64,000 nucleotides of DNA from contig CALGRX010000020.1 of the NCBI GenBank assembly GCA_937880755.1, positions 56,119 through 120,118 on the forward strand. The letters are read 5' to 3'. Shown piece by piece: positions 18,731 to 59,686 of this stretch. Position 1 is the stretch's first letter. Each line of letters begins with the position of its first letter. The DNA comes from an uncultured Clostridia bacterium (lineage in GTDB: Bacteria > Bacillota > Clostridia > Christensenellales > UBA3700). The translations under genes and the position numbers were made by a program. A model generated the notes under the pieces. The model saw only the letters and a list, made by a program, of their open reading frames with translations, had not been told where the DNA came from and did not search any database.

Positions 18731-18998
18731 GTTGTGCTAGGTGGGGAGCTAGCGGTGCCCTGTATCTGCAATCCGCTACAGCAGAGCTGAAGGCTATTTT
18801 AGGCTTGAGCTATGCAAGGTCCGCCTCAGATAAGTGACGTTGATAACAAGGTCTTGTGCAATTGCACCCTGTGAACCATGTCAGGGCTTGACCGCAGCAG
18901 CATTAAGCAGATCGTGCGATGTGCCACGAGGTAGCTTTGAGGGAGTCAACTGTCTGAGTCACGCTTGGGTAGTTCTTGTCAACGATAGATGCACAACC
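18731..18998 (+). ncRNA. ffs: Signal recognition particle RNA, long Bacillus-type (about 270 nt, with Alu domain)
   Basis: Contains a domain IV-like core (GTGAACCATGTCAGGGCTTGACCGCAGCAGCATTAAG) and a 5' GTGCTAGGTGGGGAGC Alu-type region. The 5' GTTGTGC pairs with the 3' GCACAAC (18991-18997). No ORF is present. Confidence 0.8.
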
Positions 18999-46861: not shown

Positions 46862-47350
46862 TTATACGAGTTGTTGCAGTTTGGCGTCGTCGCCGTTGAT
46901 TTTGTCCGCCATATCTTGCTTGTACTTTTTCATTTTTTCGCCAAGCTCGGGATATTTGATAGACAGCATTTGTATAGCGAGCAGTCCAGCGTTGAGTCCG
47001 CCGTTGATAGCCACGCAAGCCACGGGAATACCCGACGGCATTTGCACCATAGATAGTAGACTGTCCAATCCGTCCATAGTGGAACTCTTGACGGGTAGTC
47101 CTATGATTGGTAGCGACGTATATGCGGCAATCACTCCGCCGAGGTGAGCCGCTTTGCCCGCAGCGCAAATAATCACTTCGATACCGTTAGCCTCGGCATT
47201 GCAAGCGTACTCGTGAGCCTCGTTGGGAGTGCGGTGCGCAGAAATAACTCTGGCGTCGACTTCCACGCCGAATTTCTTGAGTATTTCGATTGCAGGTTTT
47301 ACTACGTCAAGGTCGCTGAGGCTACCCATAACAACGCCAACTTTAGCCAT
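46862..47350 (-). CDS. purE: 5-(carboxyamino)imidazole ribonucleotide mutase
   Basis: 162 aa with VGVVMGSLSD and SAHRTP motifs. It is the first gene of the pur operon here. Confidence 0.95.
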   Translation of the reverse strand: MAKVGVVMGSLSDLDVVKPAIEILKKFGVEVDARVISAHRTPNEAHEYACNAEANGIEVIICAAGKAAHLGGVIAAYTSLPIIGLPVKSSTMDGLDSLLSMVQMPSGIPVACVAINGGLNAGLLAIQMLSIKYPELGEKMKKYKQDMADKINGDDAKLQQLV

Positions 47351-47544
47351 ATTTTTCTCCTAAAAGTTTGTCAAAATAAATTAGAAAAAAGATAAATAAT
47401 CTTACTGCCCATATACTACCATATTTCGATACTTTTTTGCAAGGAAAAAGCCCCAAATTAAAATATTTATTTACAAAATACACAATTTGCATAATTTTGT
47501 CGATTTTTGTGTTTTTTAACGGATTTTTTTGCGATTTTGGGCAG

Positions 47545-47675
47545 TTATCCACAGCATTATCCACATTTGACCTCAGTTATCCACATTCCGAAAAGTCGAT
47601 TTTTTATCCACCTTTGCCGACAAGTATCGGTTTTTTGCCAAAATTATCAAACTAAATATATCCGACTTATCCACA
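47545..47675 (+). promoter_or_regulatory. Array of five co-oriented DnaA boxes (4x TTATCCACA, 1x TTATCCACC)
   Basis: Exact matches read directly: 47545-47553, 47557-47565, 47577-47585 and 47667-47675 (TTATCCACA), and 47604-47612 (TTATCCACC). An AT-rich tract lies immediately to the left (47455-47540). Confidence 0.75.
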
Positions 47676-47865
47676 TACAATTTTAGCTAATTTTATGCAG
47701 TTTTCACCCCTATTTCTATCCCAAATCTATCGCAATTTGTACGTATTTTCTTTCAATACAACTACTCACTTAAACGTCATTCAATACTTGCGTAGCTCTA
47801 AGAGCAATTTATGTCGCATTTACTCTACTCGCGACAATCTTTTTCTCCACACTACCCCAACTCTT

Positions 47866-50412
47866 TCATTGCAAAATAAATGCCAACACGGTTTGGCTTT
47901 TTGTATCGTTATTTATCTTATCGGCAAGTCCACCTTCTTTGGCTCTCCACAAAGACAATACCTTGCCTGCTTTATCATCAAAGTGGTGCTTGATTTCGCC
48001 CAATACTCTATCGGAGATTTTGACCTTGTGGAAGTATTGCTTGAGTGTCTTGATTACCTCTCTTGCCTCGTCCACCTCGACGTCACCGCTCAAAGCCTCA
48101 TATATATCTTCTACGACAGTATGGTTGATTACGTAGTCGGCTATCTCCACGCCTACGCCAATATACTCGCCCTTGTTCGCCTTGTTTAAGCCTTTCCACA
48201 GTCGGTCTATCAATTCGTTTGTTCCCTTGACAGTTCCTACCATACCTTTTTCCTCGAAGATAAGCCTCTCTTCTATATCGGCTATTATCTTCTTGGCTTC
48301 GGCTTTGGTGAATATCTTGTCGGTGGTAAGGTTACCCTTTGCCTTGATTATATCCCCCTCATTGCTTGGTGCAGGCGACTTGCGAGAGAGTTTTATATCG
48401 TTAGGATTTTTTGAAACAAAATCTTGACTTTTTATATCTATCTTACGTATAATAGTATTAGAAGCCAAGTTTATTATAACGTCGGACAATTGGAGTCCGG
48501 GGTTCACTGATACTCTTTGGCTTCTTTTTTTATCCCAAAAAAGTATTTTATCATTATCAATGAATTTTTTTATATAACTATAAAAATTATCTTTTCCATA
48601 TGCGCTTGTCATTACATTGGCTTGAATGATAATATTCTCCAATCTTCCTATGCCGTTAACTTTAATCGCTACAATAATTGGTTTATTTTTCTTATCAACA
48701 GCTTGCGTTATTAAAACTACGCTATCATCTCTTGTTAGACTCTCGGCTATCAATGCAGGTTTTTCAATAAGTTTTGGTAGTTGTTTTATTATGTCTATAC
48801 CTAACCCGTGATAGTTTAGACCTTTCTTACCACTCTCATTTACTGTTGTATCCAAATGTCGTGCAGTCATCAAAATAGGAAGTTTTGGCAAACCAACGTC
48901 TTGCAATATTTGTGGTGTGTCCATAATTTTGAGATGTGTTGACGTAGTATCTTTTCCGCCCAATATGTCGTCTACTTGCTCGGCAAATGGCTTGATAGAG
49001 TACCTTATATCTTGGTCGCTCGTTGGGTTGAGATTGGTTGTAAGTTTTATTTGATTCGGCTCAAAAGCCACAACCATTTTACTTGTACCATCATCAATTA
49101 TAATACTGTCAGCCTCTAACGCATCATAATCGTCCAAAATAGCTCCTTGAAAAGCGTCCCAAAATCCTATACTATCATCATCGGTTAGAGCTTTTGCAGG
49201 ATATCCGTTCTTTTTCAAATATTCTTTATTTATAATAAGTGGTTTTTCCCCTAAAATATAGCAAGGAAGAACTCTACCTTTTTTGCTACTAAATTCTGAG
49301 GTGGAATAATCTTCTGCTATGCTCTTTCTATCAATAAAGAAGAAACCTCTATCGTCAAAAGAAAAGCGTGAGCCTATAAACTCTTTACTAAATTTATAGA
49401 ACTCATTTTTAGGAGTTCCGTGATAAACCACGAGCAAATTGCCTTGCTCGTCTCTTACCTTACTATCTCTAAAATATTCCGCTTGTTGTTGGCTTAATTC
49501 TTTGCCTTGACTGTCTTTGAGGGAATAGTTCTTTTTCTTCGTTCCGTCCGGATATGTTACTATTTGTCTTCCGTCATCGTTGAAGTGGTAGTCTACTGCT
49601 CGCTTATTTCCGTTGCCTTTTTGAGAATGTCCGATTCCGTCGCTTTCGGATTCTCCAAGAGGTATTCCGCCATTGTAGCTATCTGCTCGTCCTTCGGAAT
49701 CAAGAGCATTATTGCGACGATTGCGTCTTGCTTGACTTTTAAGAACTTCAAGCACTCGATTAAGTTCGCTTGTGCTTCCAATAATTGATTCGCCATTGTT
49801 TTCTCCTATTTTCGCTTCAATAGAAGCGATATATTCTTGATTTGCGTCCGTGATTTTGATTTGCTTCAAAACTCCGAAGTTGCCAAGGGCAAAGTTTTCG
49901 TACACATAGAAGTAGTTAGCGCTTCTTGCTGCGCCATACCTCGGAAGTTCTTCCTCACGAGCCCTATATCTCGAATTATCTTCCATAATACGGCTACTAA
50001 TAATTGCGTACTCTTGCTTCGGAATTTGCTTATATATTTCTTTTTTATTATACTGCAAAGCAAGCGTTTGGTCAACACCAACCTCGGCATTTTGCTCGTC
50101 TACTTGGACTTGTTTGTTGTCTTCTCTACCTTGCTCTATTATTTGGATGAGGTTTTGTCTTCCGTGGTCGTATGCACTGCGCAAGTACATATTTTCCGCC
50201 AAAGTAAGCACCTTATACTCGGCTCTTTTCTCACCGCTCATCTTGAAGAGTTTAATAAGGTTTTGTATCTTCTTGACAATGCGCATAGCAATATTAGGTT
50301 GTTCCGCTACAACCTTGTCTATAAACTGCTCGTTGCCTATCAATTCTTCCGTCAACAGTGCCGTAAGTTCGCTATCTATCGTCTTTTGGTCGCTACCTTG
50401 GTATCTCTCCAA
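47866..50412 (-). CDS. Start-less ORF resembling an internal fragment of a phage/conjugative-element polyvalent protein (ART-PolyVal-like + MuF_C/PBECR-like modules); possibly a pseudogene
   Basis: 848 codons with a TTG track start and no RBS. The frame stays open upstream to a TGA at 50485-50487, inside the gdhA terminator. Motifs: LLVVYHGT...GFFFIDRKSIAEDY...VVAFEPNQIK...DIRYS, then MTARHLD...NYHGLGIDIIKQLPKLIEKPALI. The core is AT-rich. Confidence 0.55.
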   Translation of the reverse strand: MERYQGSDQKTIDSELTALLTEELIGNEQFIDKVVAEQPNIAMRIVKKIQNLIKLFKMSGEKRAEYKVLTLAENMYLRSAYDHGRQNLIQIIEQGREDNKQVQVDEQNAEVGVDQTLALQYNKKEIYKQIPKQEYAIISSRIMEDNSRYRAREEELPRYGAARSANYFYVYENFALGNFGVLKQIKITDANQEYIASIEAKIGENNGESIIGSTSELNRVLEVLKSQARRNRRNNALDSEGRADSYNGGIPLGESESDGIGHSQKGNGNKRAVDYHFNDDGRQIVTYPDGTKKKNYSLKDSQGKELSQQQAEYFRDSKVRDEQGNLLVVYHGTPKNEFYKFSKEFIGSRFSFDDRGFFFIDRKSIAEDYSTSEFSSKKGRVLPCYILGEKPLIINKEYLKKNGYPAKALTDDDSIGFWDAFQGAILDDYDALEADSIIIDDGTSKMVVAFEPNQIKLTTNLNPTSDQDIRYSIKPFAEQVDDILGGKDTTSTHLKIMDTPQILQDVGLPKLPILMTARHLDTTVNESGKKGLNYHGLGIDIIKQLPKLIEKPALIAESLTRDDSVVLITQAVDKKNKPIIVAIKVNGIGRLENIIIQANVMTSAYGKDNFYSYIKKFIDNDKILFWDKKRSQRVSVNPGLQLSDVIINLASNTIIRKIDIKSQDFVSKNPNDIKLSRKSPAPSNEGDIIKAKGNLTTDKIFTKAEAKKIIADIEERLIFEEKGMVGTVKGTNELIDRLWKGLNKANKGEYIGVGVEIADYVINHTVVEDIYEALSGDVEVDEAREVIKTLKQYFHKVKISDRVLGEIKHHFDDKAGKVLSLWRAKEGGLADKINNDTKSQTVLAFILQ

Positions 50413-50466
50413 TATCTCTTGTTGACGAGCATTGAGTATTCCTTTTCCCTCGGCTATCTTGCGTAC

Positions 50467-50494
50467 AAAAAAGGTCGGTATATTTCAACCGACC
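50467..50494 (-). terminator. gdhA terminator
   Basis: Minus strand: GGTCGGT-tgaaatat-ACCGACC followed by TTTTTT, 22 nt after the gdhA stop. Confidence 0.8.
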
Positions 50495-50516
50495 GATTTT
50501 ATTTGATTTTGGTGGA

Positions 50517-52052: not shown

Positions 52053-52970
52053 ATGATTAGCAATATTTTTACAATGTTGGTAGATTTACTCAACAATCCC
52101 AAATGCACTGCGCAAGAATTGGCTAGCAAACTCGAAATCAGCGAACGCACCGTCTATCGTTACGTAGACGTTCTAAGTTTTGCTCACGTACCCGTCGTAT
52201 GCAAAAAAGGTAGAGACGGCGGAATTATGATAGGCGAAGACTTCAAGCTTCGCGCCCAATATCTTACTAGAGAAGAATTGGAGTTGATTTTCACCTCTCT
52301 CGACACCCTGCCCTTCAACGACACGGCGGTGGGTATCAAGGCTAAGCTTCAAAATATCAATACCGACAAGCGCACGGATGAAAACTTCCACTCAGACCTA
52401 TTCGTAGTGGACAAGTCTACTTGGGGCAACAACACCAATCTCCAACAAAAGATGGACGCTTTGCTCAAAGCCCGTTCTCGCAAAAAGGCAGTCAAAATCA
52501 CCTATCACGATAGAGGTGGCAACCTCTCCGAACGTGTAATCGAGCCATACGTGGTTGTGTACGGTGCAGGAATATGGTACATATACGCATGGTGCCGTAT
52601 GCGCAACCAAATGCGCACCTTCAAAATCAGCCGTATCACGCATATTTTGCATACAGACAGCGACTTCAAGCCTAGAGAATTTACCAACGCCTGGAAGATA
52701 GCCAACAAACTTGACAATGCTCAAGAGATAAGCATAGTGCTCAAGGTCAACCAAAACGCCCGTTACGACGTAGAAGAATGGCTGGGCGTCGAAGCGGTCA
52801 ACAAAGCCGAACAAGGCGACTATTGGATAGCGCAAGCCTACGTCACAGTGGGCGACAAACTCATAGACAAGCTTCTCTCCTATCGCGAAAACGTCGAAGT
52901 CCTCTCCCCTATCTCCATAAGAGATAAAGTCAAAGAGAGCGCAATGAATATCGCCAAACTATACAAGTAA
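52053..52970 (+). CDS. YafY-family transcriptional regulator (HTH + WYL + WCX domains)
   Basis: 305 aa with the N-terminal HTH TAQELASKLEISERTVYRYVDVL and the WYL region ITYHDRGGNLSERVIEPYVVVYGAGIWYIYAWCRMRNQMRTFKISRI. RBS AAGGTG. Confidence 0.8.
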   Translation: MISNIFTMLVDLLNNPKCTAQELASKLEISERTVYRYVDVLSFAHVPVVCKKGRDGGIMIGEDFKLRAQYLTREELELIFTSLDTLPFNDTAVGIKAKLQNINTDKRTDENFHSDLFVVDKSTWGNNTNLQQKMDALLKARSRKKAVKITYHDRGGNLSERVIEPYVVVYGAGIWYIYAWCRMRNQMRTFKISRITHILHTDSDFKPREFTNAWKIANKLDNAQEISIVLKVNQNARYDVEEWLGVEAVNKAEQGDYWIAQAYVTVGDKLIDKLLSYRENVEVLSPISIRDKVKESAMNIAKLYK

Positions 52971-59554: not shown

Positions 59555-59680
59555 ATAAATTCTTTGAGGGCAGGTGCAATTCCTCACCGGTGGTACAGTC
59601 CACAAACGTCGTAAATCTTTATGCGACGCCGAATAGGTGCAATTCCTATACCGACAGTATAGTCTGGATGAGAAAGGAAG
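59555..59680 (+). promoter_or_regulatory. FMN riboswitch (RFN element)
   Basis: Conserved RFN cores are present: GAGGGCAGGTGCAATTCCTCACCGGTGGTA, ...GGTGCAATTCCTATACCGACAGTATAGTCTGGATGAGAAAGGAAG. The 3' P1 strand overlaps the ribU RBS. The downstream gene is a riboflavin ECF S component. Confidence 0.9.
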
Positions 59681-59686
59681 ATTATT

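Follow-up and report, generated by a model that had tools for sequence, protein, structure and literature searches.

What is known of polyvalent proteins comes almost entirely from surveys of domains, and both the shuffling of their modules and their fate in host genomes are poorly documented. The survey of Iyer, Burroughs, Anand, de Souza and Aravind (2017; PMC5512222) describes ADP-ribosyltransferases (ARTs) of the H-Y-D type, for which it defines the active site, treats MuF_C as a PBECR domain and reports that orthologous polyvalent proteins of Helicobacter prophages (the jhp1044 family) are extremely mosaic. The MuF polymorphic toxins of temperate phages are thought to be delivered together with the phage DNA (Jamet et al. 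2017; PMC5576092). We have analysed a stretch of 64,000 nucleotides, hereafter the window, from an uncultured Clostridia bacterium (Christensenellales; UBA3700; assembly GCA_937880755.1, contig CALGRX010000020.1, positions 56,119 to 120,118, forward strand), in which an open frame that we call X lies between gdhA and purE (47866..50484, − strand; 872 sense codons and a stop). It is very probable that X derives from the polyvalent effector gene of a phage, has been truncated at both ends, occupies a fixed locus and is a mosaic. The best explanation of these properties, to which we give a probability of roughly 55%, is that X is a phage-derived relic at a fixed locus, whose cargo modules would be swapped and whose intact frame would be sustained by recombination.

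Phage parent, chromosomal site and truncated ends

The complete parent of X is found in a protein of 2393 aa (P0084), whose gene is the last on a phage contig of 36.9 kb and follows those for capsid and tail fibre. A further phage copy (P0078) is likewise a last gene, cut by the end of a 32-kb contig (L016), and stands behind genes for P22-type portal, major head and tail-fibre proteins. The relationship is close, the chromosomal allele of locus L008 sharing 95.9% of 1378 nt with the phage gene (codons 252–706) and residues 1055–1214 of P0084 being 89% identical to the 3' block of the window. Both phage copies carry homology 250 aa farther upstream than the long chromosomal forms described below, and the phage protein continues for ~1180 aa beyond ...WRAKEGGLA, the codon at which the chromosomal homology to the phage ends. 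A phmmer search with the 3' block against 1.84 billion representatives gave 161 matches, mostly internal in proteins of 2000–4268 aa, and in PHROGs both matching stretches of X fall inside profiles of 1664 and 2793 positions, which marks them as parts of giant phage proteins. The rest of the 64-kb window has no other match to the phage protein. Judging from the gene position and the domain content, the phage parent would most likely travel in the virion and be injected, so as to modify targets in the host at an early stage of infection. The initial annotation had described X as a truncated polyvalent-protein fragment of an integrative conjugative element (ICE) or of a phage: the phage fragment stands, an ICE or conjugative origin is rejected because the full-length relative sits among phage structural genes, and neither the cut at both ends nor the two-step loss described below had been foreseen.

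The metagenome-assembled genome (MAG) GCA_034114385.1 contains both copies: a chromosomal contig (gdhA, the junction and the 5' part of X) and a phage contig end at the same codon and are 95.5% identical over 557 nt, with the last 141 nt identical, and a third contig begins inside X and runs into purE. These contigs constitute direct evidence for the coexistence of phage and chromosomal copies and for tracts common to both. Wider searches returned little. The tblastn comparison with INPHARED phages and PLSDB plasmids returned Stx phages and Acinetobacter plasmids only, by distant MuF_C matches (~30% identity), the scans of IMG/VR gave nothing with alignment A1, only two distant phages with P0078 and nothing with P0084, and a scan of JGI metagenomes for the terminator junction gave nothing. 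A distant IMG/VR phage encodes a 2362-aa polyvalent protein (DarA_C, ddrB-ParB and LPD38) with the same EGAEEM motif at residue 351. Directly 3' of this 2362-aa gene lies a TnpB/IS605 OrfB-type gene with a Cas12f-like TNB domain (L017 16588–17802; IMG/VR UViG_3300036953_000085).

In every readable homologue contig X has gdhA on one side, preceded by a divergent WYL regulator, and purE-purM-purN-purH-purD-purL on the other; the GTDB species representatives gave only two loci. With species groups set by host-gene synonymous divergence (dS), the window falls with L002 and L013 into group A (purH dS up to 0.04), L001 forms group B1, and L003, L008, L010 and L015/L019 form group B2, host dS amounting to 0.02–0.04 within B2 and to ~0.35–0.42 between groups. 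The alleles of group A are all short forms and those of group B all long forms. The initial annotation had named homologues with a conserved start at this position, or conservation of the frame at this locus across relatives, as speaking against a decaying remnant, and part of this was found: the comparison of synteny places X at the same locus in three species-level lineages, and P0004, P0005 and P0008 are homologues that begin with the same TTG. Since the exact locus is shared by three lineages and same-TTG homologues occur, X is therefore a long-lived, highly polymorphic resident of this locus and not a one-off decaying insert. It could be argued that phage reads were fused to the chromosome during metagenome assembly, as the genomes are MAGs and the assembly of GCA_034114385.1 breaks within X, at the point from which the two copies, phage and chromosomal, no longer differ. 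Such an artefact is scarcely credible, as more than 15 assemblies made independently of one another (NCBI, ENA and Logan; contigs of up to 744 kb) have identical junctions at the gdhA terminator and at the purE spacer.

The annotated open reading frame (ORF) of X (47866..50412, − strand; 848 aa, identical to the database protein P0001) begins with a TTG at 50410–50412, 5' of which the frame remains open for 24 further codons (NIPTFFVRKIAEGKGILNARQQEIL...) back to a TGA at 50485–50487. This TGA lies within the 8-nt loop of the gdhA terminator hairpin, and direct reading of the sequence revealed no Shine-Dalgarno-like sequence at a usable distance before the TTG, which is the first start-type codon. 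Both the start-less frame and its emergence from the terminator of the neighbouring gene had been recognized in the initial annotation and are confirmed. Two features define this end:

50467..50494 (−): gdhA intrinsic terminator, hairpin GGTCGGTTGAAATATACCGACC (50494..50473) followed by TTTTTT, 22 nt past the gdhA stop (terminator scan and sequence)
50456..50468 (−): junction of an 878-bp deletion, in the window's species only, aligning to both L001 10021–10033 and L001 10911–10923

Comparison of the junction with the phage gene places the start of the phage-derived DNA immediately past the T-tract of the gdhA terminator, and the hairpin adjoins X also in L001, L002, L003, L008 and L010, as well as in L019, where one base of the loop is different. 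The nearest homologues (P0002, P0003 and P0007) have 1130–1169 aa, with ~285 extra N-terminal residues that include a VHE[IV]LH motif, and the long-form frames (L001, L003, L008, L010 and L019) also begin flush with the T-tract of the hairpin. The 20 codons 5' of the window's TTG (FVRKIAEGKGILNARQQEIL) align to the interior of these longer homologues and of the 2393-aa phage protein, as is to be expected of the 5'-truncated remnant that had been proposed. In fact, 878 bp of L001 are missing from the window, the break points sharing a 10-nt microhomology (TTGTGCGCAA / TTGTGCGTAA of the long form); the deletion junction of L002 is identical to that of the window, and L013 aligns unbroken across it with 97.9% identity. 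The deletion took away the HExxH segment (VHE[IV]LH), together with the only Shine-Dalgarno-like site with an ATG. This segment, a candidate for the HExxH metallopeptidase (MPTase) of polyvalent proteins, has no Pfam metallopeptidase match, and a distant giant relative shows a sub-threshold DUF6782 match. In terms of the 2393 codons of the phage gene, the long forms correspond to codons ~250–1215 and the window to ~535–1215. Read from these alignments, the 5' truncation is a two-step process, with an older step at the gdhA terminator that is common to the sister species and a later 878-bp step in the window's species. A word-indexed search with the long-form N-terminus found nothing beyond this clade. 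Near the 5' end of X a single start codon has a usable Shine-Dalgarno-like site (AAAGGA, 7 nt before it): an ATG outside the frame of X (in CTCAATGCT; 50440–50387, − strand), with an ORF of 18 codons that is closed by a TAG. Translational coupling or read-through from gdhA into X was considered and rejected, as X is in another frame than gdhA and the loop of the hairpin contains a stop.

At the 3' end, the B2 alleles stop at a TAG directly after GGLA, ~45 nt before a hairpin (GCCAAACCGTGTTGGC) with a T-run, and B1 stops three codons later than B2 (PIG-TAA). The window's species reads 19 codons more, across this hairpin (47882–47897); the T-run that follows it is clean in the sister species and interrupted in the window (ATTTATTTTG). 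The hairpin does not resemble the terminator that follows the phage gene. As to the abrupt end pointed out in the initial annotation, its last 11 codons (KSQTVLAFILQ*) are read-through across X's own hairpin. The first seven codons of the tail (DKINNDT) are faintly like the phage continuation (P)DQIAQEI, with 12/21 nt matching. The idea that a 17-nt deletion had removed the stop was dropped in view of this faint likeness, either state being possibly the older.

Module organization and allele diversity

Downstream of the junction, X is composed of constant blocks and variable modules:

50070..50468 (−): conserved 5' block (left homology arm), predicted helical bundle; G+C 0.43; no Pfam match
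49528..50042 (−): variable pre-ART module, predicted alpha/beta domain with a predicted local distance difference test score (pLDDT) of 77–87; G+C 0.42; no Pfam match
49415..49527 (−): conserved joint 1 (NYSLKDSQGKEL...VVYHGT), putative breakpoint between modules; G+C 0.41
49021..49452 (−): ART-PolyVal ADP-ribosyltransferase domain, aa 345–488; variable ART core at 49414–49072, G+C 0.33
48998..49071 (−): conserved joint 2 (NQIKLTTNLNPTSDQDIRYSIKPF), putative recombination breakpoint; G+C 0.42
48517..48825 (−): MuF_C domain (PBECR-type predicted RNase), within the third variable module at 48389–48997, G+C 0.33
47926..48388 (−): conserved 3' block (right homology arm), ending ...WRAKEGGL(A); G+C 0.46
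47866..47925 (−): species-specific tail (DKINNDTKSQTVLAFILQ*), crossing X's own terminator-like hairpin at 47882–47897 (alignment of eight loci)

The profile search against Pfam, for which residues are numbered along the 872 codons, places ART-PolyVal (PF18760) at aa 345–488 with 88.2 bits against a cut-off of 31.2 (1.1e-24; profile positions 1–139 of 140) and MuF_C (PF18819) at aa 554–656 with 79 bits against a cut-off of 27.6 (3.2e-22; positions 5–102 of 103), so that both domains, named in the initial annotation, proved to be correctly recognized. The helical filler that had been likened to LPD domains has no LPD match, the remaining blocks matching no Pfam family even at E ≤ 10; at this limit the N-extension, the HExxH segment, the pre-ART module, the C-block, the replacement module of P0003 and the N-terminus of the phage protein gave only noise. 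A sub-threshold LPD3 match is found in allele P0008. X has no match in NCBIfam, none of the PADLOC-DB v2 defence models is matched by the window protein, P0003 or P0009, no Rfam family reaches its gathering threshold within 47300–50500, and an exact look-up of the window protein P0001 returned no record.

In the ART domain, the window keeps H355 and D459, which are invariant in 60/60 relatives, Y354 (58/60), Y393 and Y409. The AlphaFold2 (AF2) model of X, built from a 44-sequence alignment, has a mean pLDDT of 59.8 and is confident for the 5' helical bundle (pLDDT 70–91 over aa 30–100 in the numbering of the 848-aa protein), the pre-ART alpha/beta domain and the ART, where it exceeds 90, and of low confidence for MuF_C and most of the C-block. 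With half of the model at low confidence, the Foldseek comparison of the whole protein with PDB gave only weak matches, the best being the ART domains of PARP4 and PARP2 (E = 0.035). The search against BFVD yielded 24 matches at E ≤ 1e-3, mostly giant phage ART-PolyVal or polyvalent proteins. The model supports an ART fold, for which NAD+-dependent ADP-ribosyl transfer is a predicted activity.

The G+C content follows the module borders: the conserved arms have 0.43–0.46, the ART core and the MuF_C module 0.33 and the host genes 0.47–0.49, whereas X overall has 0.39 and the phage 0.41. The manual counts that had first hinted at a mosaic (14/60, 8/60 and 28/60) were exact on recount. The 5' block, which in the long forms is immediately preceded by the HExxH segment, is 91.6–97.9% identical at the nucleotide level to L001, L002, L003, L010 and L013. 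The pre-ART module is 95–98% identical in L003 and L013, with unrelated sequence in its place in L002, L001 and L008. Joint 1 is an island of 113–115 bp with 91–96% identity between alleles whose neighbouring sequences do not align; joint 2 is an island of 74 bp that is 88% identical to L013, whose following module differs, and the phage gene matches it with 88% identity over 84 bp. The third module is swapped for PBECR3 in L013/P0005, for PBECR5 in L010/P0009 and for other sequence in L015 and L023, and MuF_C is missing from the phage protein P0084. As judged from these alignments, module exchange appears to occur at the conserved joints. They encode NYSLKD..., DIRYSIKP... and DIKLSRKS..., similar to the linkers [RK][YF]S[LRK]K of P0084, P0024 and P0009; we infer a role in recombination for their DNA, and one may speculate that they are also protease sites. 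In total more than 15 alleles that differ by whole modules are found at the locus, among them:

P0001 (window), P0004, P0002 and P0007: ART and MuF_C
P0005 and P0006: ART and PBECR3
P0009: ART and PBECR5
P0003: an unassigned domain instead of ART, and MuF_C
P0010 and P0012: without ART
L023: the window's ART, followed by a different third module

Some features of the surroundings were also noted. The spacer between X and purE carries four perfect DnaA-box 9-mers (TTATCCACA, + strand) at 47545, 47557, 47577 and 47667 (47545–47675), which are the only ones in the 64 kb, where shuffled sequences predict 0.32. They are nearly invariant in eight loci of three species, with a single change in one box of L001. 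As the window shows no GC-skew switch, the cluster is probably not a replication origin (oriC), a candidate that we therefore reject; a regulatory site 5' of the pur operon, or a DnaA-box cluster, is the probable reading. The HTH-WYL-WCX regulator (52053–52970, + strand), divergent from gdhA, is present wherever the retrieved DNA extended upstream of gdhA; a 318-aa variant is called in one species-A locus, and in PADLOC the regulator matches only generic WYL models. The only gathering-level Rfam matches in the window, the bacterial large signal recognition particle (SRP) RNA and the FMN riboswitch (18732–18996 and 59556–59683), are unrelated to X.

Expression signals, selection and the origin of the intact frame

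According to the explanation that we favour, X is an internal fragment of a giant virion-associated polyvalent effector gene of a roughly 37-kb tailed phage. In the ancestor of the three sister species, which are uncultured and Christensenellales-like, phage codons ~250–1215 would have come to separate the gdhA terminator from the purE leader, leaving a fragment without the N- and C-terminal parts of the phage protein, which presumably serve structure or delivery. The cargo region (HExxH segment, ART and PBECR-type RNase) would have been retained between two constant blocks, and these blocks and the two short joints would provide homology for recombination with related phages and other strains, giving rise to the many mosaic alleles at the locus. 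In the window's species the 878-bp microhomology deletion followed, and its frame now runs from one terminator loop across another hairpin. In what is an uncertain step, the window allele would most likely be a poorly translated or untranslated relic, whose intact frame and ART residues probably reflect a recent origin, refreshment by recombination, and selection on long-form and phage copies. The data show the origin, the two truncations, the fixed locus, the mosaicism and the low dN/dS described below; how the fragment was captured, which way modules have moved and that expression is lacking are parts of this account that we infer.

Regarding expression, the long forms carry GAAGGTGCGGAAGAAATG, with AAGGTG 8 nt before an ATG, ~40 nt past the T-tract. 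The 28 nt upstream of GAAGGTGCGGAAGAAATG show substitutions and an indel between L001 and L003, whereas the sequence downstream is ~95% identical, which suggests that GAAGGTGCGGAAGAAATG is likely a real start in the long forms. The 5' end of X leaves no room for a promoter, so that transcription would need read-through of the gdhA terminator. A strong −35/−10-like site is found inside the ORF at 50075–50047, but carries little weight since such sites are 2.4-fold over-represented across this AT-rich region.

The genealogy of X is decoupled from that of the host. Within B2, the 3' block has a dS of 0.11–0.36, roughly 3- to 10-fold above that of host genes (0.02–0.04), whereas between species the 5' block has a dS of 0.07–0.18 against ~0.36 for host genes; also, the 5' block and pre-ART module of the window are 95.3% identical to L003, above the 92–93% of the flanks. 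We have compared nonsynonymous and synonymous divergence (dN/dS) by the Nei-Gojobori method:

Host gdhA, purE and purH: dN/dS 0.01–0.08, in comparisons with enough changes
X, shared blocks of at least 100 codons: dN/dS 0.03–0.28, higher only in short or barely diverged blocks
X, window versus L001, 520 codons: dN/dS 0.16
X, window versus L002 (both short forms), 558 codons: 1 nonsynonymous to 20 synonymous changes

Over the 80 junction-nearest codons, the five chromosomal long forms make up a lineage specific to the chromosome, with 8 fixed codon differences (6 synonymous) from the two phage copies. In the 5' block, short and long forms are separated by 4 nonsynonymous and 2 synonymous fixed differences, and the private changes of the window are 3 synonymous and 0 nonsynonymous. 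Since the window differs by only 1–2% from its nearest relatives in the shared blocks, its intact frame is weak evidence. Moreover, broken alleles exist in the window's species: L021 (3500–6000; GCA_034103645.1) contains scrambled pieces of several alleles in three frames, with both arms gone, and L023 (1–2229) has a single in-frame premature stop within its different third module. These broken alleles, the missing Shine-Dalgarno sequence and start codon, and the 4:2 ratio of fixed differences speak for a relic in the window's species.

Several observations weigh against a relic. These are the low dN/dS of the larger shared blocks and of the comparison between the two short forms listed above, at least 7 distinct short-form alleles with an intact frame behind the same deletion junction, the retention in the window of all family-invariant ART residues, and the fact that no empty gdhA-purE site was seen among the loci read. 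In the chromosomal long-form lineage, polymorphisms at codons 253–334 are 10 synonymous and 0 nonsynonymous, which argues for selection in this lineage unless unseen phage donors carry the variants. Taken together, these points would agree with a gene of continuing importance for the host, whose translation could begin at the TTG or another weak start on gdhA read-through transcripts. Import from a phage pool and selection in place cannot be separated with the available data.

These observations lead to a serious though unlikely alternative, in which X is a domesticated effector, as the initial annotation had also considered, that the host keeps as a cytoplasmic protein, useful for instance when further phages superinfect or other mobile elements enter. 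Its ART and PBECR-type RNase would act without the virion-targeting ends, transcription would come by read-through of the gdhA terminator, the long forms would start at the AAGGTG and ATG and the short forms at the TTG or another weak start, and the cargo swaps would represent diversifying selection. Besides the low dN/dS, also among short forms, and the 10:0 ratio in the junction-proximal chromosomal lineage, this would agree with frames that are intact in more than 15 alleles of three species, with the intact H-Y-D site, with the start-like conservation at GAAGGTGCGGAAGAAATG in the long forms and with the lack of an empty site. However, the terminator lies directly upstream with no room for a promoter, the window's form has no Shine-Dalgarno-like site with an ATG, two short-form alleles are broken, the PADLOC defence models are unmatched, and the low dN/dS may come from the phages, since the genealogy is decoupled from that of the host.

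At the other extreme, a whole temperate phage may once have resided at gdhA-purE, X being the neutral leftover of two independent deletions. An extant phage with the full gene in the same host lineage, the decay of L021 and L023 and the foreign composition (0.39 for X and 0.41 for the phage, against 0.47–0.49 for the host) are compatible with such a prophage in decay. Nevertheless it is improbable: the gene is cut at both ends, the 64 kb contain no other phage sequence, neither an integrase nor an att site was found at the locus, and a neutral frame of 2.6–4.4 kb would be expected to have several stops per lineage (dS ~0.36 between and ~0.04 within species), whereas 5/5 long forms and ~7/9 short forms are intact. 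Strict neutrality would need frequent refreshment by recombination, by which this account merges into our preferred one of a relic sustained by recombination.

Another, unlikely proposal is that the locus constitutes a chromosomal cargo depot for an arms race, in which the variable effector region of a phage injection protein, held between homology arms at a fixed site, is used by the host or lets host and phage trade modules. If so, the host could express truncated effectors, or could recombine to corrupt or capture the injection-protein gene of an incoming phage, and the allele at the locus would record and shape the phage encounters of each strain.

Comparison with known systems

The locus offers a natural series of more than 15 alleles at one site in three species, with an extant phage parent at 95–96% identity, defined joints and two dated truncations. 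If the long and short forms are expressed, the host would have retained the domains of an injected effector (ART and RNase) without the delivery parts. If they are not, phage recombination can keep a dead gene looking alive, which would be a caveat for the use of dN/dS and intact ORFs as evidence of domestication. What is new is the state of the gene, an internal fragment at one core-genome site in three species that exchanges modules with a living phage and evolves in a coding-like manner despite the missing start in one species.

X also invites comparison with defective or cryptic prophage remnants, which a 2014 PNAS study by Bobay, Touchon and Rocha is said to have found under purifying selection. 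Like these, X is a phage-derived gene that persists in the chromosome with the remainder of the phage absent; it is truncated in relation to a functional phage copy, is flanked by core genes and has a dN/dS well below 1. Unlike them, it is a single internal gene fragment and not a gene set, its allele diversity is 3- to 10-fold above the background, and it exchanges whole modules with an extant phage.

X resembles the MuF polymorphic toxins (PMC5576092), which are multidomain proteins carried by phages of gut Firmicutes and vary in their enzymatic or toxic modules. Unlike in these toxins, the N-terminal MuF domain (PF04233) is absent from both X and its phage parent, and the variable part is central and not C-terminal; membership in this group is thus rejected. 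No candidate immunity gene was found downstream of X, the only ORF of the 515-nt spacer being one of 73 aa that overlaps the purE start and was not itself examined. As for the anti-host proteins packaged in virions, T4 Alt (an ADP-ribosyltransferase) and P1 DarA/DarB/DdrB (PMC5512222), the phage parent would most likely be packaged and injected like them, whereas the ART of X, unlike T4 Alt, belongs to the H-Y-D and not to the R-S-E clade, and the chromosomal fragment is devoid of the ends presumably needed for delivery.

The closest likeness is to the phage-type polyvalent proteins (PMC5512222; also the giant Stx-phage protein phrog_616), which combine an ART (Tox-ART-HYD2) and PBECR/MuF_C in one polypeptide. 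At least two unrelated effector domains likewise occur in one polypeptide here, ART and MuF_C in the window and ART with PBECR3 or PBECR5 elsewhere; the full-length relative of X also stands beside virion genes, and the orthologues show extensive module shuffling. Unlike polyvalent proteins, however, the window copy lies among core metabolic genes, only P0078 and P0084 adjoining virion genes, and X is an internal fragment without both ends and without a recognizable start, held at one chromosomal site in three species.

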